Sequence record: OL744216.1
DNA: 64,000 bases
Reading direction: 5' to 3' (one strand)
Source of the DNA: Enterobacter phage vB_ExiM_F4M1E
The notes beneath the pieces are model-generated. The model had not been told where the DNA came from and made no database searches. It saw only the letters and a list, made by a program, of their open reading frames with translations. The translations under genes and the position numbers were made by a program. Of this stretch, positions 4,650 through 57,925 are shown in pieces (the first letter of the stretch is position 1; the number at the start of each line of letters is the position of its first letter).

Positions 4650-4682
4650 TCCACTGGATGGGGGCCGAAGCCCCCGGATATT
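4650..4682. repeat. intergenic GGGGGC-cgaa-GCCCCC hairpin (palindrome family, no -35/-10)
   Basis: 6-bp GC stem with tetraloop between two minus-strand genes. Confidence 0.4.
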
Positions 4683-4684
4683 AC

Positions 4685-5353
4685 TTAGTCGCAGGACGAG
4701 GAACTTGAACCACTGTCATACGAACTGGAGTCGTAAGAACTGCTGGAAGAAGAACCATAGCTCGAACTGCTGTAGCTGTCGTCAGAAGACGAGTAGCTTG
4801 AACTGTACGTTGAGGTCGCAGCGGAACTGCGGCACTCTTCCACCGGGGCAGGCTGCGCCGCCGGGGTGTCATCACTCAGGATCGCTCCGGCTGCATAGCC
4901 ATACAGCGCTGCGTTTACCGGATCAATACCGTGAGAAACGACATGACCACCTGTGCTGTGCGGAGTATCGTCCAGTCGGCGGGCAGGTGCCGGAGAACCG
5001 GACACTTTAGCCTGCTTAATGAACTGACGCTTCGCTTTTGGCGGCAAGGTTTTACCCTTCGCATAGCTTGGAAGTTCCACACCTTTAAGCTGCTCGTTCA
5101 GAGGCTTAGGTGGGGTCTTTTCCACCGGGACTTTTACCCCAGCGGCCTTCAGGTCTGCTTCAACCTGCGCCACGCTCTCCTGAGTAGACGGCTCAACGGT
5201 CACATTAACAACGGGACGTTCATAGCTGCGAGACTCCACAGTCACAACACGTTTAGTCTGTGATTGCTTGGCGATGTATTCGTCAACCTTCACGTCATCA
5301 ATCTTCGCCGGGGCGAACAGGGCTTTTACCCACGCTACAAACCTCTTGATCAT
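4685..5353 (-). CDS. protein with Ser/Tyr/Asp low-complexity C-terminal tail
   Basis: 222 aa; C-terminal about 45 residues almost exclusively S/Y/D. Confidence 0.5.
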   Translation of the reverse strand: MIKRFVAWVKALFAPAKIDDVKVDEYIAKQSQTKRVVTVESRSYERPVVNVTVEPSTQESVAQVEADLKAAGVKVPVEKTPPKPLNEQLKGVELPSYAKGKTLPPKAKRQFIKQAKVSGSPAPARRLDDTPHSTGGHVVSHGIDPVNAALYGYAAGAILSDDTPAAQPAPVEECRSSAATSTYSSSYSSSDDSYSSSSYGSSSSSSYDSSSYDSGSSSSSCD

Positions 5354-5565
5354 ACTTCCTCTCCTTCTTCGTTGAGAACAGTCAGCAAATTGGTGCCCAG
5401 CAGGCCAGCGGAGATCAGATCATCAATACCTGCCTGCCCGGTGAGTCCATCTTCAAAACAGTCAGCCAGATTTTCGTTCTCCAGCATCCAGTTATTAGCG
5501 GCCTTTTCGGAGGTGAACAACAAGCCTTCATGACCGATGTCCCACTCACAGAAAATCTCAAACAT
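5350..5565 (-). CDS. acidic hypothetical protein
   Basis: 71 aa ORF, ATGA-type overlap with neighbours. Confidence 0.45.
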   Translation of the reverse strand: MFEIFCEWDIGHEGLLFTSEKAANNWMLENENLADCFEDGLTGQAGIDDLISAGLLGTNLLTVLNEEGEEV

Positions 5566-5894
5566 TATCCTCTCCTCTTATTGTAAACTTCCCTCGCCCA
5601 TTTCACAGCCGCTTCAAGTACGTCTCCGTGACATGGATGGGGATGACAGAAGCATACCAGATCTTTACCTTCCAAAGCAAGAAGATCTTCAATGGTAATT
5701 TTCCCGGACCTGATCTGTTCCCACAACCAAACACGGTATCGTTCAATTGTGGCCCCTCTCGGCTCTTCTTTCGACAGCTTAAAGGGGTTGGCGAACTTAG
5801 ACTGCTTTAGCCCGAAGTGGGGCATGGCGCGGCCTATGTACACAGCATTATCCGGGATTACTTTACTCAGGTGGTAAAAGTTAAGGACCGCCAT
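5565..5894 (-). CDS. DUF4326-like protein
   Basis: VYIGR...NPF...C.C.P.PCHGDVL pattern reminiscent of DUF4326. Confidence 0.4.
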   Translation of the reverse strand: MAVLNFYHLSKVIPDNAVYIGRAMPHFGLKQSKFANPFKLSKEEPRGATIERYRVWLWEQIRSGKITIEDLLALEGKDLVCFCHPHPCHGDVLEAAVKWAREVYNKRRG

Positions 5895-6184
5895 TATCGG
5901 TCGGCCTTTAACTTCTTGTCAACCTCCGCCACCATACGGTTCAGTTCAGCCATTTCTTCGTCCAGCTTCTTGTTGATAGGTTTCCCAAACAACCAGAATT
6001 TATCCTTCGCAAAGTCCACCTTGTCGGCTGTCCACTGGCAAAGGTCTTCCAACTTTCCCGCCAGGAAACTGCCAAAGGCAGCGAGCAGGCTGAACGGGAT
6101 CAGTACGGCACGATGTGGGTTAAGCACAATGAGCACTGTCAGCAGAAGAATGACTTTACCAAACTTCGTTAGCACCTTCAACAT
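5894..6184 (-). CDS. membrane protein
   Basis: two hydrophobic helices. Confidence 0.5.
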   Translation of the reverse strand: MLKVLTKFGKVILLLTVLIVLNPHRAVLIPFSLLAAFGSFLAGKLEDLCQWTADKVDFAKDKFWLFGKPINKKLDEEMAELNRMVAEVDKKLKADR

Positions 6185-6586
6185 TTAATTCCCCTCCAAA
6201 CGAACATGTGGGTCAGCAAGATCATCCAACCCGTAATCCCAGAGGTCCATCCCAAAGTGACGAACACCATCCTCTGGCTCGTAGCCCGGTCGGGTGCATG
6301 GAGACACCCAAATACCTTCGACATTTGCTTCGACAAGCCCCTCTACACCAATACGGCTGTATGTCAGATAAGGGACCAACACCGGATCTTTTTCGCCGCA
6401 ACCGCAGTCACAGACCCATGCTTTTCCTTCCCCGACATACGGAAGTTTCTCTGCCGGGATGAAATTTAACTGCGCCAGAGGGAATCTTTGGATCATCGCC
6501 GCTTGGTAGTCCGGGCCTACCAACCCGGATACGAAAGCATTGACTTCTTCAGATTGCTTCTCAACGAGTTCGCCGTTATTTAGCAT
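6185..6586 (-). CDS. hypothetical protein
   Basis: 133 aa ORF with CDCGCGE Cys cluster. Confidence 0.5.
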   Translation of the reverse strand: MLNNGELVEKQSEEVNAFVSGLVGPDYQAAMIQRFPLAQLNFIPAEKLPYVGEGKAWVCDCGCGEKDPVLVPYLTYSRIGVEGLVEANVEGIWVSPCTRPGYEPEDGVRHFGMDLWDYGLDDLADPHVRLEGN

Positions 6587-6923
6587 CCAAAAGCTCCTTC
6601 TTGGTTTTGATTTCCTGATTAACTTTCACGTAAACATCCTTGGCGATCGGCTTGTAACAACGATCGTCAGAGAAGATGTACCCGGCCTGCTTGGCTTCAT
6701 ACTTCTCGCATGTCGCATAGTGGCGCTTATAGTCGCCGTAGTCCATACGGATAATCAGCGGAGACAAAATGAATCCCCAGAAGATAACACCGACCCCAAC
6801 ACCCGCCAGTTTATACTTCCATGACTCACCAAGACCCTGTACAAACCCAAAAAGCGCGCCCGCAATCACAAACACCAGAACCATGTCTGCATTTTTAAAC
6901 AAAAACTCAAAGAAACCGATCAT
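6576..6923 (-). CDS. membrane protein
   Basis: hydrophobic N-terminal half. Confidence 0.5.
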   Translation of the reverse strand: MIGFFEFLFKNADMVLVFVIAGALFGFVQGLGESWKYKLAGVGVGVIFWGFILSPLIIRMDYGDYKRHYATCEKYEAKQAGYIFSDDRCYKPIAKDVYVKVNQEIKTKKELLDAK

Positions 6924-6934
6924 ATGTACTTCCC

Positions 6935-7120
6935 CTATTTTAAATTTTTCTGAAGGTTGTCAACTTGATTTTCAAGTTCCTTGGCAAGGGCCAGTGCCTT
7001 GTTGTGGTACTTGTCTTTGAACGCCTGCTTGGTCGTCCATTTCAGCCCGGGAGTTGTGATAATCGCCATCATCAGCGAAATACCAAATAACTTAACGGCT
7101 TTTGAAAATAAACCTTTCAT
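6935..7120 (-). CDS. small membrane/secreted protein
   Basis: 61 aa with hydrophobic core. Confidence 0.35.
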   Translation of the reverse strand: MKGLFSKAVKLFGISLMMAIITTPGLKWTTKQAFKDKYHNKALALAKELENQVDNLQKNLK

Positions 7121-7128
7121 GATCCTCC

Positions 7129-7350
7129 TTAAAAATCAAACTGTTTAGTTAACTTTTTCATCGTGCCTTGATATGACGGGTGCAGTTTGTAATTGCACCC
7201 CTTCTCAACACACCAATCCGAAGCCGGGTTACGAAGCGCCACCAAACCACACCAGGCACAGACTTGCTTGCCTGCGTGTTTGTCCAGATAGAAGTGGTGA
7301 CGCTCATAATGATACTCTTCTTTCTGCCCCTTGTCTACCTTTTTCACCAT
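7129..7350 (-). CDS. Cys/His-rich putative zinc-binding protein
   Basis: CAWCG...C..C/H pattern. Confidence 0.45.
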   Translation of the reverse strand: MVKKVDKGQKEEYHYERHHFYLDKHAGKQVCAWCGLVALRNPASDWCVEKGCNYKLHPSYQGTMKKLTKQFDF

Positions 7351-8018
7351 CCGAATTTCTCCGTTGGAAGATAAACTTGCTGCTGGTTACGAAGTACCAG
7401 TCGCAGATCTTTTTGTGGCTCAAGATAGTCAGTCTCGGTCACACGAATAAGGTATCGCCAGCCCGGCGCACGGGCCTGTTGTGCGGTGTGCAGTTCCCAC
7501 CAGTCCCATTCAACCACCTGACCGTCCGGCGCGTCGTAGGTGTCAAGGAGGCCCTTGTTATCCATCTCACAAACCTGGCTGGAGATCCCGGCGTACAGAT
7601 TCGGGAGGTTCTCCGTGACCAAGTTGATATTGCGTGAGGCAATGAACTTCGTCGGGCAATCCCCACCGACAACCAGCAGATGGTAGCGAGGGGACTCAGT
7701 GCCTTCCTGCATGTGGATGTGCGGAGCGCCAGAGGCTGGGGACAGAGACTTCCCACCACGAGGAACGCCATCCGTGTGCCAACCAGGGATCGCAGGGATC
7801 ATGCCCGACATCAGCATGTGGGTTTTCACATCAACCACGATATGCTTTTTATCGCCACGCAGGTTAATAGCCTGGAGGGCCGCACGGGTTACGTCCCCGC
7901 CGAAGCGGAAAGCATCATCGAACGATGCGTTCCACAGACCCTGTGTGTTCTTGATGTCGTCCTGAGACGGCTTCTCGATCTTATTGCCAAACTGTACTTC
8001 GCCACGGTTAAATTTCAT
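7344..8018 (-). CDS. 2OG-Fe(II) oxygenase superfamily protein (PhyH-like)
   Basis: PGWHTDG (WHxD) facial-triad motif plus downstream HIHM histidine. Confidence 0.45.
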   Translation of the reverse strand: MKFNRGEVQFGNKIEKPSQDDIKNTQGLWNASFDDAFRFGGDVTRAALQAINLRGDKKHIVVDVKTHMLMSGMIPAIPGWHTDGVPRGGKSLSPASGAPHIHMQEGTESPRYHLLVVGGDCPTKFIASRNINLVTENLPNLYAGISSQVCEMDNKGLLDTYDAPDGQVVEWDWWELHTAQQARAPGWRYLIRVTETDYLEPQKDLRLVLRNQQQVYLPTEKFGW

Positions 8019-8027
8019 TTCGTCACC

Positions 8028-8273
8028 TCATTGATATTGGGCTTTCCAGGTAATTCGTCCGGTCTTGCACACAAACTTATCTTCAACCACCAATCCGCTG
8101 AACGCCCCGTCCGGGGCATTGACAACGGAGTTGACCATTCTCTGCTCCCCGGTCTTTACGCAACCGTCTTGGTAGTCCTGATACTCTTGCATTCCGTAAC
8201 TGACAAGAGAGATTATAATCAAACAGCCGATTAAAGTAAACCACAATTTGAACCAAATGCTGCTGTTTTTCAT
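8028..8273 (-). CDS. secreted/membrane-anchored protein
   Basis: N-terminal signal/TM (LIGCLIIISLVSYG). Confidence 0.45.
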   Translation of the reverse strand: MKNSSIWFKLWFTLIGCLIIISLVSYGMQEYQDYQDGCVKTGEQRMVNSVVNAPDGAFSGLVVEDKFVCKTGRITWKAQYQ

Positions 8274-8536
8274 GATAATACCCCTGCATAAATGTCGATA
8301 GCTTCCTCTTTCGAGATGTGCCCATTTACCGTGTGTACTTCCTGTTTCAGGCAGTATTTACACACCCTCGACACCTGAGTTTCATGGCTCTGTGGGACCA
8401 CATATGTCGGGGTGTCGTGATGCCGGGTGATCTGAAGGGCCTCTGTTACTCTCCAGTTGTGCATGACACATTCGTCTTTCTTTTTTGTCGTGAACCAACC
8501 CATGTTACACCTCCGGTGGTAAGGTAACGCCGCCAA
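8270..8536 (-). CDS. hypothetical Cys-containing protein
   Basis: 88 aa ORF. Confidence 0.45.
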   Translation of the reverse strand: MAALPYHRRCNMGWFTTKKKDECVMHNWRVTEALQITRHHDTPTYVVPQSHETQVSRVCKYCLKQEVHTVNGHISKEEAIDIYAGVLS

Positions 8537-8720
8537 CGCTGCGGCAACGTGACAGGTATGCGGTGTTGGCCCGAGTAGCCTGATCCCTAAGCTCGTCGTT
8601 CTCTTTGGCCTGGTATTCGATGAACTTTAGCATTTCCCACAACTTGTCAATAAGTACATCCTTCTTCAAGGATTTCCAGTGTTTACGGAAGGCGATCTCG
8701 TCTTCACTCATCAGCCTTTT
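8505..8720 (-). CDS. hypothetical protein (start at MKRLMSEDE)
   Basis: GAGGAAA RBS before internal ATG. Confidence 0.4.
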   Translation of the reverse strand, partial: KRLMSEDEIAFRKHWKSLKKDVLIDKLWEMLKFIEYQAKENDELRDQATRANTAYLSRCRSVGGVTLPPEV

Positions 8721-8722
8721 CA

Positions 8723-9091
8723 TTACAGTTTCCTCATTTTCTTGATGTTTTTTGGGGACACGTAAGAGATATTGTTGAAAATCTTCATCTCTTCTGTGGT
8801 TACGCATACATTATCTGTTTCTGCACAGAACGTGCTGCCAAGCCATACGTACATGCAGCGTACATCACCGATGCCGAAGCATGGCTTATCCCGGAGGTCA
8901 CCGAAGATAAAGTTTTCATCCTTGCCCATCGGTTTTCCGTCGATAAAGATAATATACCCCTCGTCCTTGAGTTGCTGAATCTCAAAGGCCCGGTCAAAAC
9001 CCTTCATGAAGCGACGGTATGAAGACTTATTCATGAAATCACTTTCGTGAATGATTGCAGAACTTACCTGCGTGATTTTGGTGTTGTTCAT
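8723..9091 (-). CDS. hypothetical protein
   Basis: 122 aa ORF. Confidence 0.5.
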   Translation of the reverse strand: MNNTKITQVSSAIIHESDFMNKSSYRRFMKGFDRAFEIQQLKDEGYIIFIDGKPMGKDENFIFGDLRDKPCFGIGDVRCMYVWLGSTFCAETDNVCVTTEEMKIFNNISYVSPKNIKKMRKL

Positions 9092-9160
9092 GTCTTTTCC
9101 TCTTTGTTGTCGATGAGAGGATTATGCGGGAAATCAGGAGGGAAGTCAACAATTTTGTGC

Positions 9161-9187
9161 AAATAAAAAGGCCACCCGAAGGTGGCC
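9161..9187 (-). terminator. rho-independent terminator
   Basis: GGCCACC-cgaa-GGTGGCC stem followed by a T-run on the minus strand. Confidence 0.65.
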
Positions 9188-9193
9188 TCAATC

Positions 9194-9592
9194 TTATTCA
9201 GCGTCCAGCGCCGCCAGTTCCGCACGAAGCTCTTCTGGGGTCTTGGACTGAACTTCACGCTGCTCGGCTTCCGCCAGAGCGTTGATCAGTTTCTGACGCT
9301 GCGCCGCCTTGGTCTGTGCAGCCACGCGCTCTGCCGCTTCGGTCTCTTTCACGCCGATCACGTGCTTAACGATCTCCAGCTTCAGTTCCAGATCTTTACG
9401 CACAGCGTTTTTGTTCTGGGACAGGAAGGACTCTTCCTTCTCTGCATTGATCTGGCGGTTGATACCCTTCGCCACTTCGTCCAGTTGGGTCAGAGACAGA
9501 TCGAACAGGTCTTCAGTCGCCAGTGACGCGAAGCGTGGGGAAGCGAAACGGATTTTGGAACGTGCTGCGATTTCAAAAATGTTGGTAGACAT
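9194..9592 (-). CDS. Ala/Glu/Lys-rich coiled-coil protein (start MSTNIFEIA), monocistronic unit
   Basis: GAGGAGAA RBS; flanked by its own family promoter and a terminator. Confidence 0.55.
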   Translation of the reverse strand: MSTNIFEIAARSKIRFASPRFASLATEDLFDLSLTQLDEVAKGINRQINAEKEESFLSQNKNAVRKDLELKLEIVKHVIGVKETEAAERVAAQTKAAQRQKLINALAEAEQREVQSKTPEELRAELAALDAE

Positions 9593-9623
9593 TGTATTCT
9601 CCTCAGTAATTAAGTTCGGGTTC

Positions 9624-9652
9624 ATTATGGGGCCTTCCGGCCCCGTTGTCAA
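9624..9652 (-). promoter_or_regulatory. sigma70-type promoter of the palindromic-spacer family
   Basis: minus strand reads TTGACA-acGGGGCCggaaGGCCCC-ATAAT with a 17-nt spacer. Confidence 0.6.
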
Positions 9653-11656: not shown

Positions 11657-11665
11657 TTAAATCTC

Positions 11666-22540: not shown

Positions 22541-22566
22541 CAAGTTAAATGGGGCCGAAGCCCCGT
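22541..22566. repeat. intergenic GGGGC-cgaa-GCCCC hairpin (palindrome family)
   Basis: GC hairpin immediately after primase-helicase stop, no strong T-run. Confidence 0.4.
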
Positions 22567-34681: not shown

Positions 34682-34738
34682 GTTTACTTCCTCATTTGTG
34701 TTGGTATGGGGCCATATTACAGGCCCCGATCTCTACTG

Positions 34739-35002
34739 TCAACCGAATTTTAATACTTCAGTGAAAAACTGGAAGAGAACCTGCGGAAGGATGATGATGA
34801 CGAACAGGCGCACAGGCATCCAGACCGCAGTGTGCCAGGTGAACAGGCCACGGGTAGCCGGGCTGAACAGGTAGCGAATACGACGAGCGGTCGCAAACAC
34901 TTCGTTAACCCAACCATAGATGATCCAGAACACACCAAAGAACAGCACAAAAATCAGAGCTTCCGGTGGGGTTACGGTGAAGAAATTAATTAGCGCTTGC
35001 AT
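34739..35002 (-). CDS. membrane protein
   Basis: two TM helices. Confidence 0.45.
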   Translation of the reverse strand: MQALINFFTVTPPEALIFVLFFGVFWIIYGWVNEVFATARRIRYLFSPATRGLFTWHTAVWMPVRLFVIIILPQVLFQFFTEVLKFG

Positions 35003-39178: not shown

Positions 39179-39206
39179 TTGACTTATCAGATGGCCCATA
39201 TATAAT
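39179..39206 (+). promoter_or_regulatory. sigma70-type promoter TTGACT-N16-TATAAT with -10 embedded in GGCCC...GGGCC palindrome
   Basis: GGCCCATATATAATGGGCC spans the -10 element upstream of the MoxR gene. Confidence 0.5.
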
Positions 39207-39238
39207 GGGCCTTATTGACAACAAAGAGGAGAAATTCA

Positions 39239-48290: not shown

Positions 48291-48402
48291 TGACCTGTGG
48301 TCAATACCTAATGCATCATAAATGTTACATTAAGGGACTTATGCACCACTAATGGTACATATATGTTACAATGCTGGAGTTATCCTCTATCAGAAAATTT
48401 GA

Positions 48403-48582
48403 GGGTCTCGATCGACTTTTCACTTTGCCAATCGTATTCTCTGCCCGGCGGGCGGGGCCGGAGTCTCGGTACAAAAACCGGGGTCTCGATCGGTTTTTCG
48501 ATTTCCAGATCGTATTCTCGATACAGGTACAGGTCTCGCGCCGGGGTCTCGATCGAAAATTCATTTTCGAAAACGTATTCTC
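48403..48582. repeat. iteron array: 3-4 units of GGGTCTCGATCG ... CGTATTCTC
   Basis: GGGTCTCGATCG at 48403, 48481, 48545 (variants 48460, 48531); CGTATTCTC at 48433, 48511, 48574. Confidence 0.5.
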
Positions 48583-48618: not shown

Positions 48619-48720
48619 GTTATCATTCTCACCTCTACCGGGTCGGAGTGAGAATCGTTCTCATTTGCAAATGCAACTAATAATCATTCGCATTCAGCTT
48701 GTTGAATGATAATCATTTTC
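48619..48720. promoter_or_regulatory. cluster of ATTCTCAT-core operator-like boxes including an exact Fur-box core
   Basis: TTGAATGATAATCATTTTC (48702-48720) contains AATGATAATCATT, the central 13-mer of the Fur consensus; also GAGAATCGTTCTCATT and ATAATCATTCGCAT. Confidence 0.4.
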
Positions 48721-48758
48721 ATCTCCAGAATAGCGGGCAGGTCCGGTGATTGTCTCCG

Positions 48759-48792: not shown

Positions 48793-48995
48793 CAAGCCCG
48801 GCCCGGTTGCAAGCGTCTTTACAGTTCTTTACAAAACTATTTTAGGCGAACTACCGGCGATCCACCTTCCGACCTGGCCCCGGTGCCCGGTACGTTAGCC
48901 CCGCCTTTTCGCCGTGGGGTGGCGTCTCCTCTCCTGTATGTGTACATTATGCACCAGGCCCGGCGGGCCGTCAATACAAAAATCAAAATAAATTT
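48793..48995 (+). ncRNA. candidate non-coding RNA between orphan promoter and GGCCCGgcGGGCC hairpin + A/T-rich end
   Basis: 200 nt GC-rich structured segment without ORF, bounded by promoter-like and terminator-like elements. Confidence 0.2.
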
Positions 48996-48998: not shown

Positions 48999-49027
48999 TT
49001 GACCTGCCAGGCAAGCCGGGCCACAAT
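48999..49027 (+). promoter_or_regulatory. promoter of array gene 1: TTGACC-N17-CACAAT
   Basis: spacer contains GGCAAGCCGGGCC. Confidence 0.45.
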
Positions 49028-49390: not shown

Positions 49391-49417
49391 AATAATGCTT
49401 GACGGGGCCGACGATAG
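49389..49417 (+). promoter_or_regulatory. family promoter TTGACG-GGGCCgacgataGGCCC-CATAAT
   Basis: 17-nt spacer with GGGGCC/GGCCCC inverted repeat; CACATAGCGACGCAC motif follows. Confidence 0.6.
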
Positions 49418-49479
49418 GCCCCATAATTCACCACATAGCGACGCACACCGCGCCGCACTAACAAAGAGAGACCGTCATC

Positions 49480-49930: not shown

Positions 49931-49959
49931 TTGACACCGGGGCCACCTGGCCCCATAAT
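49931..49959 (+). promoter_or_regulatory. family promoter TTGACA-ccGGGGCCAccTGGCCCC-ATAAT
   Basis: consensus -35/-10, palindromic spacer; GCCCGGCAAA direct repeat follows. Confidence 0.6.
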
Positions 49960-50230: not shown

Positions 50231-50239
50231 CCAATTGCA

Positions 50240-50262
50240 GGCCCCGCCGGGGGCCTTTTGTG
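50240..50262 (+). terminator. terminator-like hairpin GGCCCC-gccg-GGGGCC + TTTTGTGT
   Basis: same palindrome as promoter spacers, here followed by a T-run. Confidence 0.45.
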
Positions 50263-50639: not shown

Positions 50640-50668
50640 TTGACGCCGCCCGGGGTTACCCTCATAAT
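50640..50668 (+). promoter_or_regulatory. family promoter TTGACG-N17-CATAAT
   Basis: followed by CACATAGGGCGACGG motif. Confidence 0.55.
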
Positions 50669-50720
50669 GTACCACATAGGGCGACGGAATAACCCGCCGC
50701 CAAAACCAAAAGGTAACAGT

Positions 50721-50960: not shown

Positions 50961-50969
50961 AAATAATTG

Positions 50970-50998
50970 TTGACCGGGGGCCGGAAAGGCCCCATAAT
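50970..50998 (+). promoter_or_regulatory. family promoter TTGACC-GGGGGCCggaaaGGCCCC-ATAAT
   Basis: 17-nt palindromic spacer. Confidence 0.6.
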
Positions 50999-51030
50999 AC
51001 CAGACATACCAAACAAACGAGGCTTTACAA

Positions 51031-51261
51031 ATGAATCTGACTACTATCGGCGCTAACCAAACTATGATCACCCTGGCAAATGGCGCACAGGTTTTCTTTT
51101 CCTACAATACCCCGGTTGCGGCATACCTGCCCGGAGAGGGCTACTTGGTGACCGCCACAAAGCACAGCGCCACCACCTCAAAGCATGTTAATGCTTGGGC
51201 TGGCAAAGGTTGCGAGACCCGCCCACAGGAATTTTTTGATAATCTTATCAAATCCGCTTGA
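51031..51261 (+). CDS. array gene 6, hypothetical (76 aa)
   Basis: leader ACCAAACAAACGAGGC. Confidence 0.5.
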   Translation: MNLTTIGANQTMITLANGAQVFFSYNTPVAAYLPGEGYLVTATKHSATTSKHVNAWAGKGCETRPQEFFDNLIKSA

Positions 51262-51287
51262 CGCTGGTTTCTGCCGGGGTATATAAT
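51258..51287 (+). promoter_or_regulatory. family promoter TTGACG-N18-TATAAT with CCGGGG-tatataat-CCCCGG palindrome spanning -10
   Basis: palindrome arms flank the -10 hexamer. Confidence 0.55.
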
Positions 51288-51339
51288 CCCCGGCATAGGC
51301 AAGCGAAAGCAAACAACCAAACCGAAAGGATACCAAACG

Positions 51340-51720: not shown

Positions 51721-51726
51721 TTTAGG

Positions 51727-51756
51727 TTGACACGGGGCCGGGTTAGGCCCCATAAT
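51727..51756 (+). promoter_or_regulatory. family promoter TTGACA-cGGGGCCgggttaGGCCCC-ATAAT
   Basis: palindromic spacer. Confidence 0.6.
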
Positions 51757-51788
51757 ACCCACAGACCCAAACAAAAGAGTAAAACGCG

Positions 51789-51998: not shown

Positions 51999-52002
51999 TT
52001 GT

Positions 52003-52031
52003 TGACTCTTACCCCGTCCCGCTGGCATAAT
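52003..52031 (+). promoter_or_regulatory. family promoter TTGACT-N17-CATAAT with GTCCCGCT...AGCGGGAC palindrome spanning -10
   Basis: 8-bp arms flank the -10. Confidence 0.55.
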
Positions 52032-52086
52032 AGCGGGACTGATTAAGAGAAACACCACACAAACCAAACTAAAGAGAGTAAACATT

Positions 52087-52476: not shown

Positions 52477-52481
52477 TATGA

Positions 52482-52933: not shown

Positions 52934-52977
52934 GCGCCCCGGCAGGGAAACACTAGGCCAAACCGTTTAAACCGCAC

Positions 52978-53005
52978 AGGGGGCCTTACAGGCCCCTTAT
53001 TTTTG
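52978..53005 (+). terminator. rho-independent terminator GGGGCC-ttaca-GGCCCC + TTATTTTT
   Basis: family palindrome used as terminator stem with a T-run. Confidence 0.6.
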
Positions 53006-53009
53006 ATCT

Positions 53010-53249
53010 ATGGGGTACACAATGCAAAACCTTTACAGCATGACAGAATTTATCCGCCTCCTGGCGGGCCGTCCGATGGGCTTTACCTGCCTTTACTTGG
53101 TAAACGACGGCAAAGGCTACCGGATAACCTCAAAGTCATTAGCCGCCATTGCAGCGCGGGAAGGGGTGAAGATCTCCACCTCTCAGGCGCTCATTGTTGA
53201 CCCGGCGACCGTGGCGACGATTGAGGCGATCCGAGTCACCGTAAAATAA
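53010..53249 (+). CDS. array gene 12, hypothetical (79 aa; alternative start 53022)
   Basis: no dedicated promoter, may be read through. Confidence 0.4.
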   Translation: MGYTMQNLYSMTEFIRLLAGRPMGFTCLYLVNDGKGYRITSKSLAAIAAREGVKISTSQALIVDPATVATIEAIRVTVK

Positions 53250-53273
53250 TTCAAATATTTTCATTCCGGGGCT

Positions 53274-53301
53274 TGACGCCCGGCCCCGGTTCCCCCATAA
53301 T
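53274..53301 (+). promoter_or_regulatory. family promoter TTGACG-N16-CATAAT
   Basis: followed by CACATAGCGACGCACACCGCGACGCAC direct repeat. Confidence 0.55.
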
Positions 53302-53352
53302 ACACCACATAGCGACGCACACCGCGACGCACCAAACAAAAGAGAGTCCGTA

Positions 53353-53772
53353 ATGTCTACTAAAAATCCTTTCCGCATCAAATCAGGTTTATCCGTTTAC
53401 GCACTGGCTTGCGGCTACGTTCAGCAAATCGACACCGAAGTAACCGGGGAAAGTATCCGGGTACAATTGAGAATGGAACACGGCGCGTTTCACGTGCAGG
53501 CGTACAACTTCACCGAACACGGGCGGATCGAATGGGTAGTAGAGGACATGATCGGCGACGCTCGCACACAATGGCAACGCCTTGTAAATCAGATTTTTGG
53601 CGACACCATAAAGGCGACCAAAAAGGATCGCCGCTATACGGTAAATCGTGAGTATCGCGGGGAGAGTGACCCGGCGTATGTGACCCGCTTTTGTGGGGAG
53701 TATGTAGACTACAGCGACACCGCCGCCGCTGGCTGGATTAAGGCCGCAGAACACAAGGCCGGAAAACTTTAA
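53353..53772 (+). CDS. array gene 13, hypothetical (139 aa)
   Basis: leader CACCAAACAAAAGAGAGTCCGTA. Confidence 0.55.
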   Translation: MSTKNPFRIKSGLSVYALACGYVQQIDTEVTGESIRVQLRMEHGAFHVQAYNFTEHGRIEWVVEDMIGDARTQWQRLVNQIFGDTIKATKKDRRYTVNREYRGESDPAYVTRFCGEYVDYSDTAAAGWIKAAEHKAGKL

Positions 53773-53780
53773 AATAGTTG

Positions 53781-53810
53781 TTGACGCCGGGCACCGTCCC
53801 GGCTTACAAT
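53781..53810 (+). promoter_or_regulatory. family promoter TTGACG-CCGGGcaccgtCCCGG-cttACAAT
   Basis: variant palindrome CCGGG/CCCGG. Confidence 0.55.
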
Positions 53811-53841
53811 ACCCAAACACAAACAAAAGAGAGTCAACACC

Positions 53842-53994
53842 ATGAAACATTATTTAGTAAACATCCCTGGCGTGGCTGGCCCGCTGAAAGTTTACGGCTA
53901 CGACGAACAGGACGCAAGAAAGCGCCTACGTGATCGGGAAGGGTACGGATCACGCCTCCCACGTGGCACAAAACTTTATTTGCAAAACGCTTGA
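53842..53994 (+). CDS. array gene 14, micro-protein (50 aa)
   Basis: leader CACAAACAAAAGAGAGTCAACACC; 3' end overlaps the next promoter. Confidence 0.4.
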   Translation: MKHYLVNIPGVAGPLKVYGYDEQDARKRLRDREGYGSRLPRGTKLYLQNA

Positions 53995-54020
53995 CGTGTG
54001 GTTATGCCGTCGCCTACAAT
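53991..54020 (+). promoter_or_regulatory. family promoter TTGACG-N18-TACAAT with TATGCCGT...ACGGCATA palindrome spanning -10
   Basis: 8-bp arms flank the -10. Confidence 0.5.
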
Positions 54021-54066
54021 TACGGCATAGACAAACGAAAGCAGACAACCAAACGAGGGTTAAATT

Positions 54067-54360
54067 ATGTTTGAAGTATTCGCCGGAATGTGCTTTTATG
54101 CCGCCGCCGCTTTAAAGCAGTGTGATGATTTTGTTGTGGAGTCCTACGACGATCCGCTGACGTGTGAGATCGTGGCGACCGATTACCGCCAGGACACCCG
54201 CTGGATTAACCCGGCTTGTATTCCATCGCCAGAAGTCGAACCGATGCCAGAAGGCGAAGAGATTCAAGATCCTGCCGTGGCTGTTACCTCGTTTTTTGTG
54301 GATAATCTGGACGCCGCCGCGCTGGTCCAAATGTACGCAAGCCAGGAGGCCGCACAATGA
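54067..54360 (+). CDS. array gene 15, acidic hypothetical (97 aa)
   Basis: leader CAAACGAAAGCAGACAACCAAACGAGGG. Confidence 0.5.
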   Translation: MFEVFAGMCFYAAAALKQCDDFVVESYDDPLTCEIVATDYRQDTRWINPACIPSPEVEPMPEGEEIQDPAVAVTSFFVDNLDAAALVQMYASQEAAQ

Positions 54361-54500
54361 ACCACAGCCGCAACATTGCAAAGCGCCGCCGCCCTAATTC
54401 CAGCGCCGCCAATGATGAGCGCCGGATCGCTGGTTTCATCGCTTGCGGCTACACCGTACAGCAGGCCCGGCAAATGGTAAAAGCAAAAGGCAGAAAATAA
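54357..54500 (+). CDS. array gene 16, basic micro-protein (47 aa)
   Basis: ATGA overlap with gene 15. Confidence 0.35.
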   Translation: MNHSRNIAKRRRPNSSAANDERRIAGFIACGYTVQQARQMVKAKGRK

Positions 54501-54503
54501 TTG

Positions 54504-54533
54504 TTGACACCGGGCACCGTCCCGGCTTATAAT
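54504..54533 (+). promoter_or_regulatory. family promoter TTGACA-CCGGGcaccgtCCCGG-cttATAAT
   Basis: near-duplicate of promoters at 53781 and 54755. Confidence 0.55.
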
Positions 54534-54571
54534 TCAGCTACACCAAACAAAACAGGCAAACGAGGCCACAA

Positions 54572-54751
54572 ATGAAATCATCCTTACTTTTCGCCCTGGT
54601 AGACATAGTGATCGGCAATGGTTGCGGTCAACATACCTTCATTGCAAACCGTCCCTATCCGCTCAAATCGTTGCAGGCCGACGCCCGCCTAACCGCCGGG
54701 CAGATCCGCCGCTACTTTCGTGAACCACACCCGGCAAAAACTGCAAAATAA
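54572..54751 (+). CDS. array gene 17, micro-protein (59 aa)
   Basis: leader ACACCAAACAAAACAGGCAAACGAGGCC. Confidence 0.4.
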   Translation: MKSSLLFALVDIVIGNGCGQHTFIANRPYPLKSLQADARLTAGQIRRYFREPHPAKTAK

Positions 54752-54754
54752 TTG

Positions 54755-54784
54755 TTGACGCCGGGCACCGCCCCGGCTTATAAT
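54755..54784 (+). promoter_or_regulatory. family promoter TTGACG-CCGGGcaccgcCCCGG-cttATAAT
   Basis: near-duplicate. Confidence 0.55.
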
Positions 54785-54814
54785 TACCGAACACAAACAA
54801 ACGAGGCTACAAAA

Positions 54815-55114
54815 ATGCAACAGGCAAACACTCTTTTCATTCTGGCAAACGTAGCGGATCACGTTGTGGCGTCACTGTCCAACGTGGCGGGCACCGTGCA
54901 GATCATTTGCCGCCATATGGATGACACCGCGCCGAACCGCCTACAAATCAACGTAGACCGTAAAGGGGCCGACTTTGTGATCTCTTATGATGCCATTTAC
55001 AACGGGCGGCGCTTTATGCAGGCCAAAAGCGACCCGATCCCGGCTAACTACATTCAGGAGGCGATCGCCGTCCTGGTAAACGACACTATCCCGGCGGGGG
55101 CTATGTTACCATGA
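54815..55114 (+). CDS. array gene 18, hypothetical (99 aa, start MQQANTLF)
   Basis: leader ACACAAACAAACGAGGCTAC. Confidence 0.5.
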   Translation: MQQANTLFILANVADHVVASLSNVAGTVQIICRHMDDTAPNRLQINVDRKGADFVISYDAIYNGRRFMQAKSDPIPANYIQEAIAVLVNDTIPAGAMLP

Positions 55115-55266
55115 ATCCGCATAAACTTTTAATCACCGCCTACCCAAACAAGGCGGATCGCCGTGAAACTTTGGACCGCTTAACCCTGTATTATCAGGAG
55201 GCCGGGCACAGTAAAGCGACGGCCCGCGCCTTGGCTAAAAAACGTTTACGTTTTGGTAAAAATTAG
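55111..55266 (+). CDS. array gene 19, basic micro-protein (51 aa)
   Basis: ATGA overlap. Confidence 0.35.
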   Translation: MNPHKLLITAYPNKADRRETLDRLTLYYQEAGHSKATARALAKKRLRFGKN

Positions 55267-55267
55267 C

Positions 55268-55296
55268 TTGACGCCCGGCCCGAAAGGGCCGATAAT
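55268..55296 (+). promoter_or_regulatory. family promoter TTGACG-cCGGCCCgaaaGGGCCG-ATAAT
   Basis: followed by CACATAGGGCG + GCGGGGA-atggt-TCCCCGC hairpin. Confidence 0.6.
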
Positions 55297-55342
55297 CTCT
55301 CACATAGGGCGGGGAATGGTTCCCCGCATTATCTAAGAGGTT

Positions 55343-55501
55343 ATGAATATGTTTACTTTGATGACTTGGGAACACGAATCAAGCGCCCCTGTCCGCCGGA
55401 CCTTTGAAAACTTATGCGCCGCTTATCGCCTGGCGCAAGGCGGTTACTATAAAGCCCAAATCATCGACGAAAATAATATTGTAATGTACGAATTTAAATG
55501 A
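55343..55501 (+). CDS. array gene 20, micro-protein (about 51 aa)
   Basis: TAAGAGG RBS; two in-frame ATGs. Confidence 0.4.
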   Translation: MNMFTLMTWEHESSAPVRRTFENLCAAYRLAQGGYYKAQIIDENNIVMYEFK

Positions 55502-55530
55502 TTGACATCCGGCCCGAAAGGGCCGATAAT
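55502..55530 (+). promoter_or_regulatory. family promoter TTGACA-tCCGGCCCgaaaGGGCCG-ATAAT
   Basis: duplicate of 55268 promoter. Confidence 0.6.
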
Positions 55531-55566
55531 GACCCCACACCAAACAAAAGAGAGAGAGACCGTAAA

Positions 55567-55773
55567 ATGATTACTATGATTCTTCAAAAGTCCCGCCTGA
55601 TTGATGTTACCGTTACCCTGTCCGCTTGCGGTGACACGTCCCGCCGGGCCGATCATTACCAGGTGACCGCTGTTAGTGATCGCGGCGCTGTCCTGCTGTC
55701 TGAAGTAACAGAGCATTTGCACGAGGCTTTTAAAACCTATTCAAAGTGGAAAGGCGACGAAGAAATAAAATAA
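55567..55773 (+). CDS. array gene 21, hypothetical (68 aa, start MITMILQK)
   Basis: leader CACCAAACAAAAGAGAGAGAGACCG. Confidence 0.45.
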   Translation: MITMILQKSRLIDVTVTLSACGDTSRRADHYQVTAVSDRGAVLLSEVTEHLHEAFKTYSKWKGDEEIK

Positions 55774-55781
55774 AAATCCGC

Positions 55782-55811
55782 TTGACGCCGGGGCCACGTT
55801 GGCCCCATAAT
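55782..55811 (+). promoter_or_regulatory. family promoter TTGACG-ccGGGGCCAcgtTGGCCCC-ATAAT
   Basis: palindromic spacer. Confidence 0.6.
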
Positions 55812-55845
55812 GCCACCACACCAAACGAATAAAGAGAATCACAAA

Positions 55846-56100
55846 ATGTTAAAATTCATCAAATCACTTTTCACCCGCACCACCCCGGCTTGCAAGTTGC
55901 CACCCCTGGAGGCTAAAGGCGTGATCGCTCGCAAAGTCTCAGAATTGTTTATCATTTCATTGGTTCACAACGGCGGAGACTGTTACGAAATCATCGAAAT
56001 GGGCCGCTACACTAAAACAGGGTCAAGCCGTGTCCGTTACGGTGAACACCGCGCCCGGAATCATTTTGATTCTGTATGCTGTATGGTGGGTGCAAAATAA
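55846..56100 (+). CDS. array gene 22, hypothetical (84 aa, start MLKFIKSL)
   Basis: leader CACCAAACGAATAAAGAGAATCAC. Confidence 0.5.
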   Translation: MLKFIKSLFTRTTPACKLPPLEAKGVIARKVSELFIISLVHNGGDCYEIIEMGRYTKTGSSRVRYGEHRARNHFDSVCCMVGAK

Positions 56101-56103
56101 ACC

Positions 56104-56132
56104 TTGACGGGGCCAACGTTAGGCCCCATAAT
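56104..56132 (+). promoter_or_regulatory. family promoter TTGACG-GGGCCaacgttaGGCCC-CATAAT
   Basis: followed by CACATAGGGCGACAC motif. Confidence 0.6.
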
Positions 56133-56184
56133 GTAACACATAGGGCGACACAACGCCGCCCACAAACAGAAAAGAGATCGTAAA

Positions 56185-56544
56185 ATGAGCAAATACACCC
56201 CGTGGGAACCAATGTACAAAATCACCCTGTCCGAGTGCAGCAAAAACGAACTGGATGGAATTGTCCGCGCCGCTACTGCCGTGATCCGTGGGCTTAACTT
56301 CAAACGTTTAACCTTCAAAGAAGTAAAACAAATTTTTGAAATGCCGGATCACAAGGCCGCTTCCCGCTTGGGGCTTACTGTAACATCGCAAGGGCTTTAC
56401 AAAGATCACGACCTTAAAGGGCCGCACGTGTGGCTTTTAGCTTGCGCCGTGGGCCGCACCATTGCCGACACTATCAAAGAGATGAAAGCGCTACGCGATG
56501 ACGCAAAAGCCCGCCGGGCCGCGCTGGAAGTGGCACAAAAATAA
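56185..56544 (+). CDS. array gene 23, hypothetical (119 aa)
   Basis: leader CACAAACAGAAAAGAGATCG. Confidence 0.55.
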   Translation: MSKYTPWEPMYKITLSECSKNELDGIVRAATAVIRGLNFKRLTFKEVKQIFEMPDHKAASRLGLTVTSQGLYKDHDLKGPHVWLLACAVGRTIADTIKEMKALRDDAKARRAALEVAQK

Positions 56545-56557
56545 TTTAAAAATAAAG

Positions 56558-56587
56558 TTGACGCCGGGAAGCGTTACGGGCTATACT
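56558..56587 (+). promoter_or_regulatory. family promoter TTGACG-N18-TATACT
   Basis: degenerate palindrome CCGGGaagcgttaCGGG. Confidence 0.45.
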
Positions 56588-56635
56588 CTTTTCATCGGGT
56601 CACAACAGACCAAAACAAACAAAGAGAGAAACAAA

Positions 56636-56713
56636 ATGAGCGTAATCTTCCTGGTATCTGTTTTCGTAGCTATCGCATCTTCTACCGCAATTTGTATCAA
56701 ACTGGGATACTAA
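56636..56713 (+). CDS. array gene 24, 25-aa hydrophobic peptide (MSVIFLVSVFVAIASSTAICIKLGY)
   Basis: own promoter and leader ACCAAAACAAACAAAGAGAGAAAC; single TM helix. Confidence 0.4.
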   Translation: MSVIFLVSVFVAIASSTAICIKLGY

Positions 56714-56717
56714 TAAA

Positions 56718-57110
56718 ATGACTACTTTCAACGTTTTAAACTTAAACGCTTTTATCGCGGGTTACATTGAGGCAATGTTTTTTGCAGAGTCCGCCACCGA
56801 TAGCGACGGCGAAGAAATCGAAAGTTTAGCCGGGTATGAGTTAAGCGCTGAAGCCCTGGACGCTGCCCGCATGGATTGCGCCCGCTTTATGGATGTTGCG
56901 CCGCTGTTACTCAAAGGGGCAATGTTGGCAGGGGTTGACTACGACCACACCCAGGCAGGCCGGGATCTATGGTTTAGCCGTCAAGGTCACGGCGTAGGAT
57001 TCTGGGATCGCGGACTTGGGACGATCGGTGATAAACTTCACGACGTGGCGCAGACTTTCGGATCAAAAAATCTGTTTATCAATGATGCTGGATTTATTGA
57101 GGTAGAATAA
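56718..57110 (+). CDS. array gene 25, acidic hypothetical (130 aa)
   Basis: follows peptide gene. Confidence 0.5.
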   Translation: MTTFNVLNLNAFIAGYIEAMFFAESATDSDGEEIESLAGYELSAEALDAARMDCARFMDVAPLLLKGAMLAGVDYDHTQAGRDLWFSRQGHGVGFWDRGLGTIGDKLHDVAQTFGSKNLFINDAGFIEVE

Positions 57111-57571
57111 TGAACCTTACAGATCTGAAGTATTACGATGAATTAACCCCAGCGGCGCAAGCTGAAGCCCGGCGCAACGTTGCCGCCAGTGTGCAGACTC
57201 ACCACGGGCGGGAAATCGGAAAGGCGTTTTTTAAATTCCAGCGGGACCCAAACAAGGCGATCAATGACCCGCTACACATCCGCCGGATCGTCAACGGCGG
57301 CGAAGCGTGGCGCAAGATCCGCCAGGAGGGCGACGCCTATCTAATCCGCTTTATCCGGTCCAATAAAGTGATCTTTACTGATTGCGGTGCGTATGTGGCG
57401 TATGTGGACGCCTTCACAATGTTTATTGATGGGTTGGAATACATACCCACAGCCGAACAGCAAAAGACGCTTAGAACGCCTTACATCGACGTTAACGGGC
57501 GCGGCCCGGCGTTTCATAATTGGCTATACCGTATGCACCACAAAATAAAGTTTTTCATGATCCGGGGTTGA
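57110..57571 (+). CDS. array gene 26, hypothetical (153 aa)
   Basis: ATGA coupling. Confidence 0.5.
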   Translation: MNLTDLKYYDELTPAAQAEARRNVAASVQTHHGREIGKAFFKFQRDPNKAINDPLHIRRIVNGGEAWRKIRQEGDAYLIRFIRSNKVIFTDCGAYVAYVDAFTMFIDGLEYIPTAEQQKTLRTPYIDVNGRGPAFHNWLYRMHHKIKFFMIRG

Positions 57572-57596
57572 CACCCGGCGGAATAGGGCCGATAAT
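57568..57596 (+). promoter_or_regulatory. family promoter TTGACA-N17-GATAAT
   Basis: followed by CTCATAGGGCG + CGGGGA-atgg-TCCCCG hairpin; overlaps the end of gene 26. Confidence 0.55.
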
Positions 57597-57649
57597 GTCT
57601 CTCATAGGGCGGGGAATGGTCCCCGGCCCAATGACCTGGAGTCAGTACA

Positions 57650-57901
57650 ATGGAAATCAAACACGTAATTTCTGCAAACGTCGCCGTTTTAGGTTCTGTA
57701 AGTGAAACCCGTGTGAGTCTCGCTAAATGGTGCGCCGCTCAAACTTTCGGGAGTTACGGCGAAAAGGTAACAGAGGTTAAGCGCTTGCTTTCCTTTGGTA
57801 ACGTGGGCCGCAAGTTGTTAACAGAGGATATCGCCCGCCGGGTTGAGATCCATTATTCACTTGCTCAAATCATCGTAAAAGAGATCGAAAGCGTAATTTA
57901 A
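57650..57901 (+). CDS. array gene 27, hypothetical (83 aa)
   Basis: GGAGTCAGTACA RBS. Confidence 0.5.
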   Translation: MEIKHVISANVAVLGSVSETRVSLAKWCAAQTFGSYGEKVTEVKRLLSFGNVGRKLLTEDIARRVEIHYSLAQIIVKEIESVI

Positions 57902-57909
57902 CCCGGCCC

Positions 57910-57925
57910 GGCCCCGCAAGGGGCC
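57910..57925. repeat. promoterless GGCCCC-gcaa-GGGGCC hairpin
   Basis: family palindrome without -35/-10 or T-run. Confidence 0.35.

Follow-up and report, generated by a model that had tools for sequence, protein, structure and literature searches.

Promoter-embedded stem-loops in the early gene array of the Certrevirus phage vB_ExiM_F4M1E: a probable new example of the promoter-early stem-loop design

The window analysed here, a stretch of 64,000 nucleotides of Enterobacter phage vB_ExiM_F4M1E (OL744216.1), carries GC-rich palindromes of the type GGGGCC-loop-GGCCCC in promoters, in terminator stems and at free intergenic sites on both strands. By sequence comparison, the window is that of a Vequintavirinae phage of the genus Certrevirus (rV5-like), to which all annotated relatives belong: it shares 96.7% identity with Enterobacter phage SS-2025, 89% with Klebsiella phage KaOmega, and 77–88% with Cronobacter phages CR3, CR8, CR9 and PBES02 and Pectobacterium phages phiTE and CB7. 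The palindromes are, with a probability of about 0.65, the stem-loop part of cassettes of the promoter-early stem-loop (PeSL) type, which stand before almost every small early gene.

The early region is an array of small plus-strand genes that spans 49–60 kb and is annotated in the relatives as hypothetical proteins only. All eight array open reading frames (ORFs) sampled fall into PHROGs of unknown function, and only 58–89% of the region can be aligned between members of the genus. About 20 cassettes lie within 49.0–59.7 kb, which is a concentration in a region of small ORFans. Against some 20 promoters, the 11-kb array holds only three canonical terminators (50239, 52978 and 60276), so that read-through into the next cassette should be common. 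Nothing in the window matched an Rfam family, and a tRNA scan of its full length was likewise empty.

Each cassette takes up about 100 bp, within which one small early gene ends and the following one begins. It contains a stop codon in or beside an AT-rich UP element, then TTGAC(N), the hairpin and (C/G/T)ATAAT, after which a CA-rich leader that includes a Shine-Dalgarno sequence runs to the start codon. In 19 of the 22 promoters scanned the upstream ORF ends at −4 to +23 nt from TTGAC, that is, between 4 nt inside it and 23 nt upstream, and at 48999, 51258, 53991, 57568 and 34742 (minus strand) the stop codon TGA lies within TTGAC itself. The 25 nt upstream of the −35 are at least 60% A+T, the start codon follows 30–55 nt after the −10, and the downstream ORFs are 50–145 amino acids long. 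Two classes of hairpin are present. Class I hairpins are GC-rich, 16–19 nt long with a stem of 5–8 bp, and lie inside the 17–18 bp spacer, while class II hairpins are longer and have the −10 hexamer as their loop. The position of the hairpin in the promoter is not fixed: the 3′ arm of GGGGCC-type and CGGCCC-type hairpins directly adjoins the −10, its last base being the −12 base (T changed to C or G), whereas the GCCGGG type is flush with the −35 and leaves TTATAAT. As RNA the cassette hairpins have folding energies of −12 to −27 kcal/mol; as DNA, those of class I reach only −7 to −8 kcal/mol.

The palindrome is far more frequent than expected by chance, with 10 exact matches to GGGGCC-N3-8-GGCCCC in the window against 0.05 ± 0.22 in dinucleotide-preserving shuffles. 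Eight of them form the spacer of TTGAC-N18/19-ATAAT promoters, seven on the plus strand between 49.4 and 59.7 kb (49404, 49939, 50977, 51734, 55790, 56109 and 59650) and one on the minus strand (9629–9644). Another is the stem of a true terminator (52980–52996), followed by the T-run TTATTTTTG, and the last (34708–34727, minus strand), missing from the list given by an earlier sequence-only reading of this DNA, encloses a −10 TAATAT. Perfect GC-rich hairpins with a stem of at least 6 bp number 40, compared with about 10 in shuffles. A consensus scan of 47.5–61.5 kb returned 45 promoter-like sites (16.4 ± 3.4 in shuffles), and there 22 sites match at least 10 of 12 positions with a 17–18 bp spacer, 21 of these on the plus strand. 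In 19 of 26 strong sigma70-like promoters the spacer or the −10 region holds a perfect hairpin with a stem of 5 bp or more (73%, as against 8.9% in composition-matched shuffles), and these hairpin cassettes divide into 14 of class I and five of class II.

GGGGCC is one of at least three interchangeable “house” stems in the spacers, the others being GCCGGG(A) and CGGCCC. The six non-GGGGCC spacer hairpins carry GCCGGG or CCGGG at 53786, 54510 and 54760, CGGCCC at 55276 and 55510, and GGCCC at 48957. The sequence-only reading had proposed that one and the same palindrome was reused as promoter spacer, terminator stem and free hairpin, and every coordinate that it cited does hold a GC-rich hairpin in the role claimed. 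What does not hold is sameness: neither the terminator at 50239 nor the free hairpins (4660, 22551 and 57910) have the arms of the exact pattern, theirs being inverted or of another sequence. It had also placed the arms of the palindrome around the −10 of the promoters at 51258, 52003, 53991 and 39179, where the arms are in fact inverted repeats unrelated to it (51272, 52016, 54003 and 39193), namely TGCCGGGG/CCCCGGCA, GTCCCGCT/AGCGGGAC, TATGCCGT/ACGGCATA and GGCCCA/TGGGCC. The features are as follows.

49399–49427, plus strand: class I promoter TTGAC-GGGGCC-GACGATA-GGCCCC-ATAAT, hairpin 49404–49422, followed by the CACATAGCGACG leader hairpin.
49931–49959, plus strand: class I, hairpin 49939–49954, GGGGCC-ACCT-GGCCCC.
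50970–50998, plus strand: class I, hairpin 50977–50993, GGGGCC-GGAAA-GGCCCC, −14.6 kcal/mol as RNA.
51727–51756, plus strand: class I, hairpin 51734–51751, GGGGCC-GGGTTA-GGCCCC.
53781–53810, plus strand: class I with another house stem, hairpin 53786–53803, GCCGGG-CACCGT-CCCGGC, −10 TACAAT.
54504–54533, plus strand: class I, hairpin 54510–54525, CCGGG-CACCGT-CCCGG, then CTTATAATT; the −10 is the U-rich tail, and the site was flagged as terminator-like.
54755–54784, plus strand: class I, hairpin 54760–54777, GCCGGG-CACCGC-CCCGGC, then TTATAATT; flagged as terminator-like.
55268–55296, plus strand: class I, hairpin 55276–55291, CGGCCC-GAAA-GGGCCG.
55502–55530, plus strand: class I, hairpin 55510–55525, CGGCCC-GAAA-GGGCCG, with 22 bases identical to the 55268 cassette.
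55782–55811, plus strand: class I, hairpin 55790–55806, GGGGCCA-CGT-TGGCCCC.
56104–56132, plus strand: class I, hairpin 56109–56127, GGGGCC-AACGTTA-GGCCCC.
59642–59670, plus strand: class I, hairpin 59649–59666, (T)GGGGCC-GAAA-GGCCCC(A), a site kept into Mydovirus (KPP-1).
9624–9652, minus strand: class I, TTGACAAC-GGGGCC-GGAA-GGCCCC-ATAAT, before a single gene that ends at the terminator 9161–9187.
48946–48974, minus strand: divergent promoter, spacer hairpin GGCCC-GCC-GGGCC (48957–48969).
51258–51308, plus strand: class II, −10 TATAAT in the loop, core 51272–51295 TGCCGGGG-TATATAAT-CCCCGGCA, outer helix with G·U pairs.
52002–52039, plus strand: class II, GTCCCGCT-GGCATAAT-AGCGGGAC (52016–52039) around the −10; KaOmega synteny breakpoint at 52006.
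53991–54029, plus strand: class II, TATGCCGT-N11-ACGGCATA (54003–54029) around the −10 TACAAT.
39179–39211, plus strand: class II promoter of the ATPase operon, GGCCCA-TATATAA-TGGGCC (39193–39211) around the −10.
34708–34742, minus strand: class II, TTGACA at 34742–34737 (holding the TGA stop of the upstream ORF), N17, and TAATAT in the loop of GGGGCC-TGTAATAT-GGCCCC (34708–34727).
50640–50668, 53273–53301, 59318–59346 and 57568–57596, plus strand: array promoters lacking a perfect spacer hairpin (the last with 4 bp only), each followed by the CACATAGGGCG... leader hairpin.
50239–50262, plus strand: canonical intrinsic terminator, AGGCCCC-GCCG-GGGGCCT (stem 50239–50256) with TTTGTGTGG.
52978–53005, plus strand: canonical intrinsic terminator, AGGGGGCC-TTACA-GGCCCCTT with ATTTTTG.
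60276–60312, plus strand: canonical terminator closing the early array.
9161–9187, minus strand: terminator GGCCACC-UUCG-GGUGGCC with UUUUUAUUU, UUCG on the sense strand.
61813–61835, minus strand: terminator ACCGCC-UUCG-GGCGGU with AUUUUUG.
4660–4675, minus strand: free intergenic hairpin, sense GGGGGC-UUCG-GCCCCC (plus strand GGGGGC-CGAA-GCCCCC), with neither T-run nor promoter.
22551–22564, minus strand: free intergenic hairpin, sense GGGGC-UUCG-GCCCC (plus strand GGGGC-CGAA-GCCCC), 3′ of the primase/helicase gene and identical in KaOmega.
57910–57925, plus strand: free intergenic hairpin, GGCCCC-GCAA-GGGGCC, with reversed arm order and a sense-strand GNRA loop.

The minus-strand promoter at 9624–9652 had been read as driving a single gene, and a complete cassette is found there, in which the stop codon of an upstream 667-residue ORF immediately precedes TTGAC. 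The class II hairpin at 51258 folds as RNA with −26.7 kcal/mol (z −5.2).

Selection on pairing was assessed in 153 unique promoter cores from the window and its relatives, 103 of which have a hairpin. These hairpins contain 660 Watson–Crick pairs and only nine internal transition mismatches, which on the sense strand read as G·T in eight cases and A·C in one. The loops of the 38 distinct class I hairpins differ widely and their stems are perfect. In class II, orthologous and paralogous cassettes display compensatory changes, from CCGGGG/CCCCGG to CCGGGT/ACCCGG and from GCCGTC/GACGGC to AGGTC/GACCT, with G·U intermediates; all 14 class II variants are more stable as sense than as antisense RNA, by a mean of −5.1 kcal/mol and with 24 G·U pairs against two. 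For the class I hairpin alone the sense strand is the more stable in 21 cases and the antisense in nine (mean −0.3 kcal/mol). Sixteen distinct G...A loops occur on the sense strand and no complementary T...C loops, and the four hairpins of the window with a TTCG loop (4660, 22551, 9170 and 61820) all present C(UUCG)G when read in the direction of the neighbouring genes. The G·T bias, the sense stability of class II, and the orientation of the loops, including UUCG, argue for a structure of the sense strand rather than a symmetric cruciform. As judged from these comparisons, the evidence of selection for a folded sense strand is strong at the −10-flanking hairpins and weak at the spacer hairpins, and the folded strand is most likely read-through RNA, serving as an attenuator or a 3′ stabiliser.

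The cassettes also coincide with the places at which related genomes diverge. Between 49.0 and 60.3 kb, 28 unique clusters of synteny breakpoints were found against six Certrevirus genomes; 16 lie inside cassettes, which cover 19% of the region (p ~1e-5), and 10 inside the 50-bp core, which covers 8.9% (p ~9e-5). KaOmega, POP15 and POP17 have breakpoints at 57930–57932, by the free hairpin 57910–57925. Among about 22 orthologous groups of promoters, defined by the coding sequence that follows, seven have a stem module that varies from genome to genome, the swaps being among GGGGCC, GCCGGG(A) and CGGCCC and often taking along a −10 variant and part of the leader. At the site orthologous to 55268, for example, CR3, CR9, POP15 and POP17 carry GCCGGGA-NNNN-TCCCGGC in place of the CGGCCC stem, and a paralogous cassette of 53991, in KaOmega and an IMG/VR Certrevirus contig, has TATAGGTC.../...GACCTATA at the same position. 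Within the window, pairs of cassettes share 15–24 identical bases (20 bp for 53781 and 54504). On this comparative evidence, the pattern of breakpoints and stem swaps is that of PeSL shuffling.

PeSLs have been described in the T4-type phages RB49/phi1, T4/PST and KVP40/nt-1 as strong promoters of the sigma70 kind, preceded by an AT-rich stretch in which the upstream gene has its stop codon; they cluster in hyperplastic ORFan regions and mediate modular shuffling (Arbiol et al., 2010, PMC2839356; Comeau et al., 2014, PMC4122927). In lacZ assays the stem-loop of RB49/phi1 lowered expression like rrnB T1, the whole PeSL gave about 13,000 Miller units, and mini-circles were shown by PCR (Arbiol et al., 2010, PMC2839356). 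A direct scan of RB49 (100–149 kb) found TTGAC-AGGGGATC-N3-GATCCCCT-ATAAT before small hypothetical genes, which is the geometry of the window. The architecture noted by the sequence-only reading is therefore one already described as PeSL in T4-type phages (PMC2839356, PMC4122927). The cassettes of the window share with PeSLs the near-consensus sigma70 promoter, the AT-rich upstream region with its stop codon, a G/C stem-loop with G-T pairs that lies between −35 and −10 or overlaps the −10, an immediately following small gene of unknown function with its Shine-Dalgarno sequence and start codon, clustering in variable regions, and replacement breakpoints between close relatives. They differ in several ways. 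The window phage is a member of the Vequintavirinae (Certrevirus) and not a T4-like Straboviridae phage, a difference of taxonomic range and not of mechanism; its stems are GGGGCC, GCCGGG and CGGCCC, as opposed to GGGGATC in RB49; three types of stem occur side by side and replace one another as modules; and many cassettes add a second conserved leader hairpin (CACATAGGGCG...). It is for RB49/phi1 alone that attenuation, promoter activity and mini-circles have been demonstrated. The exact RB49 leader motif CATACC[AG]AAAC is absent from the window, and no DNA homology between the RB49 and Certrevirus cassettes is therefore claimed. The feature is real, and it adds a further instance to a design already on record; it does not represent a novel kind of element.

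In Certrevirus, a “putative early promoter” with the consensus AAAA(N3-4)TGTTGAC(N17-19)TATAAT has been reported at 13 sites in CB7, 21 in CR3, 21 in CR8 and 13 in CR9, concentrated among short hypothetical ORFs (Buttimer et al., 2020, PMC7344957). They are the very promoters found in the window, with the spacer given there as N17-19; the terms stem-loop, hairpin and palindrome do not occur in that paper, and the hairpin is also unmentioned in the rV5 and phiTE papers.

Beyond the genus, the composite pattern TTGAC-N0-3-GGGGCC-N3-8-GGCCCC-ATAAT has 31 matches in 21 stretches of IMG/VR, the carriers being Certrevirus genomes, a Mydovirus-like contig, PaP1-like Pakpunavirus contigs and two unrelated or unknown contigs. 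Only two matches were found in 185,579 bacterial and archaeal species, represented by one genome each, in a search with the composite pattern, the bare 12-base palindrome being too short for such a scan; this marks the pattern as a design of phages and not as a repeat of the host. Of 11 promoters in Pseudomonas phage PaP1, six have an 8–9 bp hairpin GGGCCATTC-N5-GAATGGCCC that overlaps the −10 TAGAAT, and promoters of Klebsiella phage KPP-1 (Mydovirus) likewise have embedded hairpins. Since the stems of PaP1 and RB49 differ from those of the window, the architecture is shared between lineages and the house stem is particular to each. The comparison with PaP1 and KPP-1 suggests that the hairpin-promoter design may be ancestral to, or spreading among, this group of myoviruses.

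What is observed in the sequences is the layout of the cassettes, their enrichment and conservation, the covariation in their stems, the strand bias and the association with breakpoints; to this the experiments on RB49/phi1 (PMC2839356) add, by analogy, a probable promoter activity and attenuation in the window phage. As double-stranded DNA, a cassette would be a near-consensus sigma70 promoter, strong and early as in RB49/phi1 (PMC2839356). As RNA, it would form a stable hairpin immediately 3′ of the upstream ORF, and it would do so only in transcripts that begin at an upstream cassette and run through. By the same analogy, the read-through hairpin may attenuate or terminate transcription, or block 3′ exonucleases, which would leave each small gene insulated, with its dosage set mainly by the promoter in front of it. 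The repeated cassettes, with their 15–24 bp of identity, would offer recombination points for swapping genes and promoter modules.

Intrinsic terminators use the same kind of GC stem, with GNRA and UUCG loops preferred on the sense strand. Most spacer hairpins, those with GGGGCC and CGGCCC stems, are followed by AUAAUAC, whereas the true terminators of the window (50239, 52978, 60276, and 9161–9187 and 61813–61835 on the minus strand) have T-runs, so that the GGGGCC type would be a weak terminator at best. The GCCGGG-type spacer hairpins precede UUAUAAUU and are borderline, being flagged in a simple terminator scan; here the −10 itself supplies the U-rich tail.

Several observations weigh against the PeSL reading and the RNA function that goes with it. 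The strand asymmetry of class I is small, and folding energies of whole segments or whole cassettes do not differentiate sense from antisense (mean difference −0.1 kcal/mol, p = 0.44), the antisense energy being the lower in 15 of 21 whole cassettes; coding controls also reach −10 kcal/mol or below in 67% of windows, and only folding tests restricted to the hairpin are informative. The variants counted share descent, and p-values therefore overstate their independence. The hairpin begins just 2–30 nt past the stop codon, where a terminating ribosome could melt it, and most class I hairpins, with two U in the eight nucleotides that include AUAAUAC and no U-tract, are not canonical terminators. 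The divergent promoter at 48946–48974 (minus strand) has a hairpin and no co-oriented upstream gene, and is thus an exception to the read-through model. Breakpoints at gene boundaries, finally, are partly expected whatever the mechanism.

A bolder version of the PeSL reading, which is unlikely as a whole, holds that promoter and terminator are the same 30 bp, most clearly in GCCGGG-N6-CCCGGC-UUAUAAUU, where the U-rich tail is the next −10, and that this is an ancient, recombination-prone module common to unrelated large myoviruses (Straboviridae, Vequintavirinae and Pakpunavirus), by descent or exchange, to which a DNA-level or protein-mediated shut-off of early promoters might be added. If it were true, a polymerase arriving from upstream would be stopped by a hairpin whose tail is the −10 of the next gene.

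The sequence-only reading had favoured either a cruciform switch or the site of a dimeric protein, and both have lost ground. Supercoil-driven extrusion of a cruciform or hairpin would collapse the −35/−10 spacing in class I or expose a single-stranded −10 loop in class II, so that promoter strength would track the topology of the injected DNA. Short inverted repeats inside promoters are known from engineered cruciform-in-spacer promoters and from the N4 virion RNA polymerase promoters, which have no sigma70 hexamers and need an extruded hairpin; as the latter extrude hairpins of 5–7 bp, short stems can extrude. The exact placement of hairpins between or around the hexamers in 19 of 26 promoters, the 3′ arm that abuts the −10 at the expense of the −12 T in the GGGGCC and CGGCCC types, and the divergent promoter with nothing co-oriented upstream would all suit such a switch. 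It is nonetheless quite unlikely. A cruciform is symmetric, yet the stems tolerate G·T over A·C by 8:1 on the sense strand, class II hairpins are 5 kcal/mol better on that strand in every variant, and C(UUCG)G is always sense. Moreover, the class I hairpins are weak as DNA, their position within the spacer varies, the same hairpins are found away from promoters, and the hexamers, unlike in N4, are near-consensus.

It is also rather improbable that the palindrome is the site of a phage or host dimeric protein, such as an early-promoter shut-off factor or a recombinase, the latter having been the speculation of the PeSL authors for GGGG...CCCC. The small set of house stems in each lineage (GGGGCC here, GGGGATC in RB49, GGGCCATTC in PaP1) could reflect co-evolution with a protein, and stem sequences are invariant where loops drift. 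Against this, loops of 3–8 nt vary the spacing and helical phase of the half-sites, three unrelated stems replace one another upstream of the same gene, other lineages use other stems, and the compensatory changes of class II, with their G·U intermediates, conserve pairing and not sequence.

That the palindromes are functionless passengers of promoter duplication or gene conversion (concerted evolution) is very improbable. The identical stretches shared between cassettes, the swapping of stems as whole modules and the roughly one quarter of array promoters that lack a perfect hairpin are in its favour, but pairing stays perfect in the 38 class I hairpins despite differing loops, class II changes are compensatory, the same design recurs with different stems in three phage groups, and hairpins are found in 73% of promoters where shuffles yield 9%.

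A mobile intergenic repeat common to the host genome can be set aside as extremely improbable. The model for it would be the repetitive extragenic palindromes (REP) and bacterial interspersed mosaic elements (BIME) of enterobacterial chromosomes, whose transcripts can shield the mRNA upstream of them against 3′ exonucleases. The elements of the window are GC-rich intergenic palindromes in many copies on both strands, but the composite pattern is all but confined to viral stretches (31 matches in 21, against two in the species genomes), the hairpins are shorter (16–19 nt, stems of 5–7 bp), eight spacer copies and one −10-enclosing copy are fused to promoter hexamers instead of standing free, and in the window they neither form an independent repeat family nor give evidence of independent mobility. 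The REP resemblance pointed out by the sequence-only reading is reasonable as a functional analogy, that of an intergenic RNA hairpin, and fails as a statement of kind.

A second hairpin is found after a subset of the array promoters, where a conserved leader CACATAG(G/C)GCG... begins at about +1 and gives the mRNA a 5′-terminal GC hairpin (49428–49460, 50669–50700, 53302–53335, 55297–55330, 56133–56165, 57597–57630 and 59347–59380). All four array promoters that lack a good spacer hairpin carry it (CACATAGGGCG...). The leader hairpin is possibly a 5′ stabiliser or a processing signal.

Behind the class II promoter at 39179, the plus-strand gene 39215–40477 matches PHROG 1297 “ATPase” (1e-108) and is annotated in relatives as a putative ATPase or MoxR. 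For this gene, the “MoxR” of the sequence-only reading, Pfam returned no match at E ≤ 0.001; Pfam likewise had no matches for the methyltransferase or for the gene downstream of the 9652 promoter.

In base composition, GGGGCC occurs 28 times and GGCCCC 23 times in the window, yet GGGCCC (the ApaI site) is absent. Over the whole window CTAG is nearly absent as well (three sites, at 320, 52953 and 60607, against 46 expected), and CGCG has an observed-to-expected ratio of 0.5. Restriction or methylation sites in the stems were considered and rejected, the ratios of GGCC (0.75) and CCGG (1.18) being unremarkable; the phage methyltransferase (18806–19489, phrog_757) has no evident relation to the stems.

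The array is flanked by two non-coding regions of about 1 kb in which a different motif, AATGATTCTCAT, is concentrated (48648–48722 and 60611–61222). It is part of a Fur-box-like palindrome of the form ATGAGAAT-N-ATTCTCAT and has 29 matches with at most two mismatches, as against 6.7 ± 2.6 expected, while the full Fur consensus has no match in the window at up to three mismatches. The repeat may be the operator of a dimeric regulator or an origin-associated repeat. Non-coding sequence at 48360–48560, upstream of the divergent promoters 48974 (minus) and 48999 (plus), holds several spaced copies of GGTCTCGATCG, each followed by a T-rich stretch; they look iteron-like by eye and were not reported by Tandem Repeats Finder (TRF). 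After the array, a 1.2-kb non-coding stretch contains two hairpins with the common loop GCATA and swapped arms, GGCCC-GCATA-GGGCC (60474–60488) and GGGCC-GCATA-GGCCC (60955–60969), and its 60291–60797 part aligns to a gap free of coding sequences in phiTE. A ToxI-like repeat, as in phiTE, was found neither there nor elsewhere in the window with the query sequence used.

For the biology of these phages, the finding would extend PeSL cassettes, so far found in T4-like phages only, to the Vequintavirinae (Certrevirus and Mydovirus) and to Pakpunavirus, and it corrects the published Certrevirus promoter consensus, in which the stem-loop had been written as N17-19. The G·U bias, the compensatory changes and the sense-oriented tetraloops are sequence-level evidence of selection on the stem-loop in the form of a folded single strand, which is most likely RNA. 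The cassettes would account for the mosaic early region of these phages, which are candidates for therapy and biocontrol, and they may serve synthetic biology as compact, strong promoter/insulator parts.

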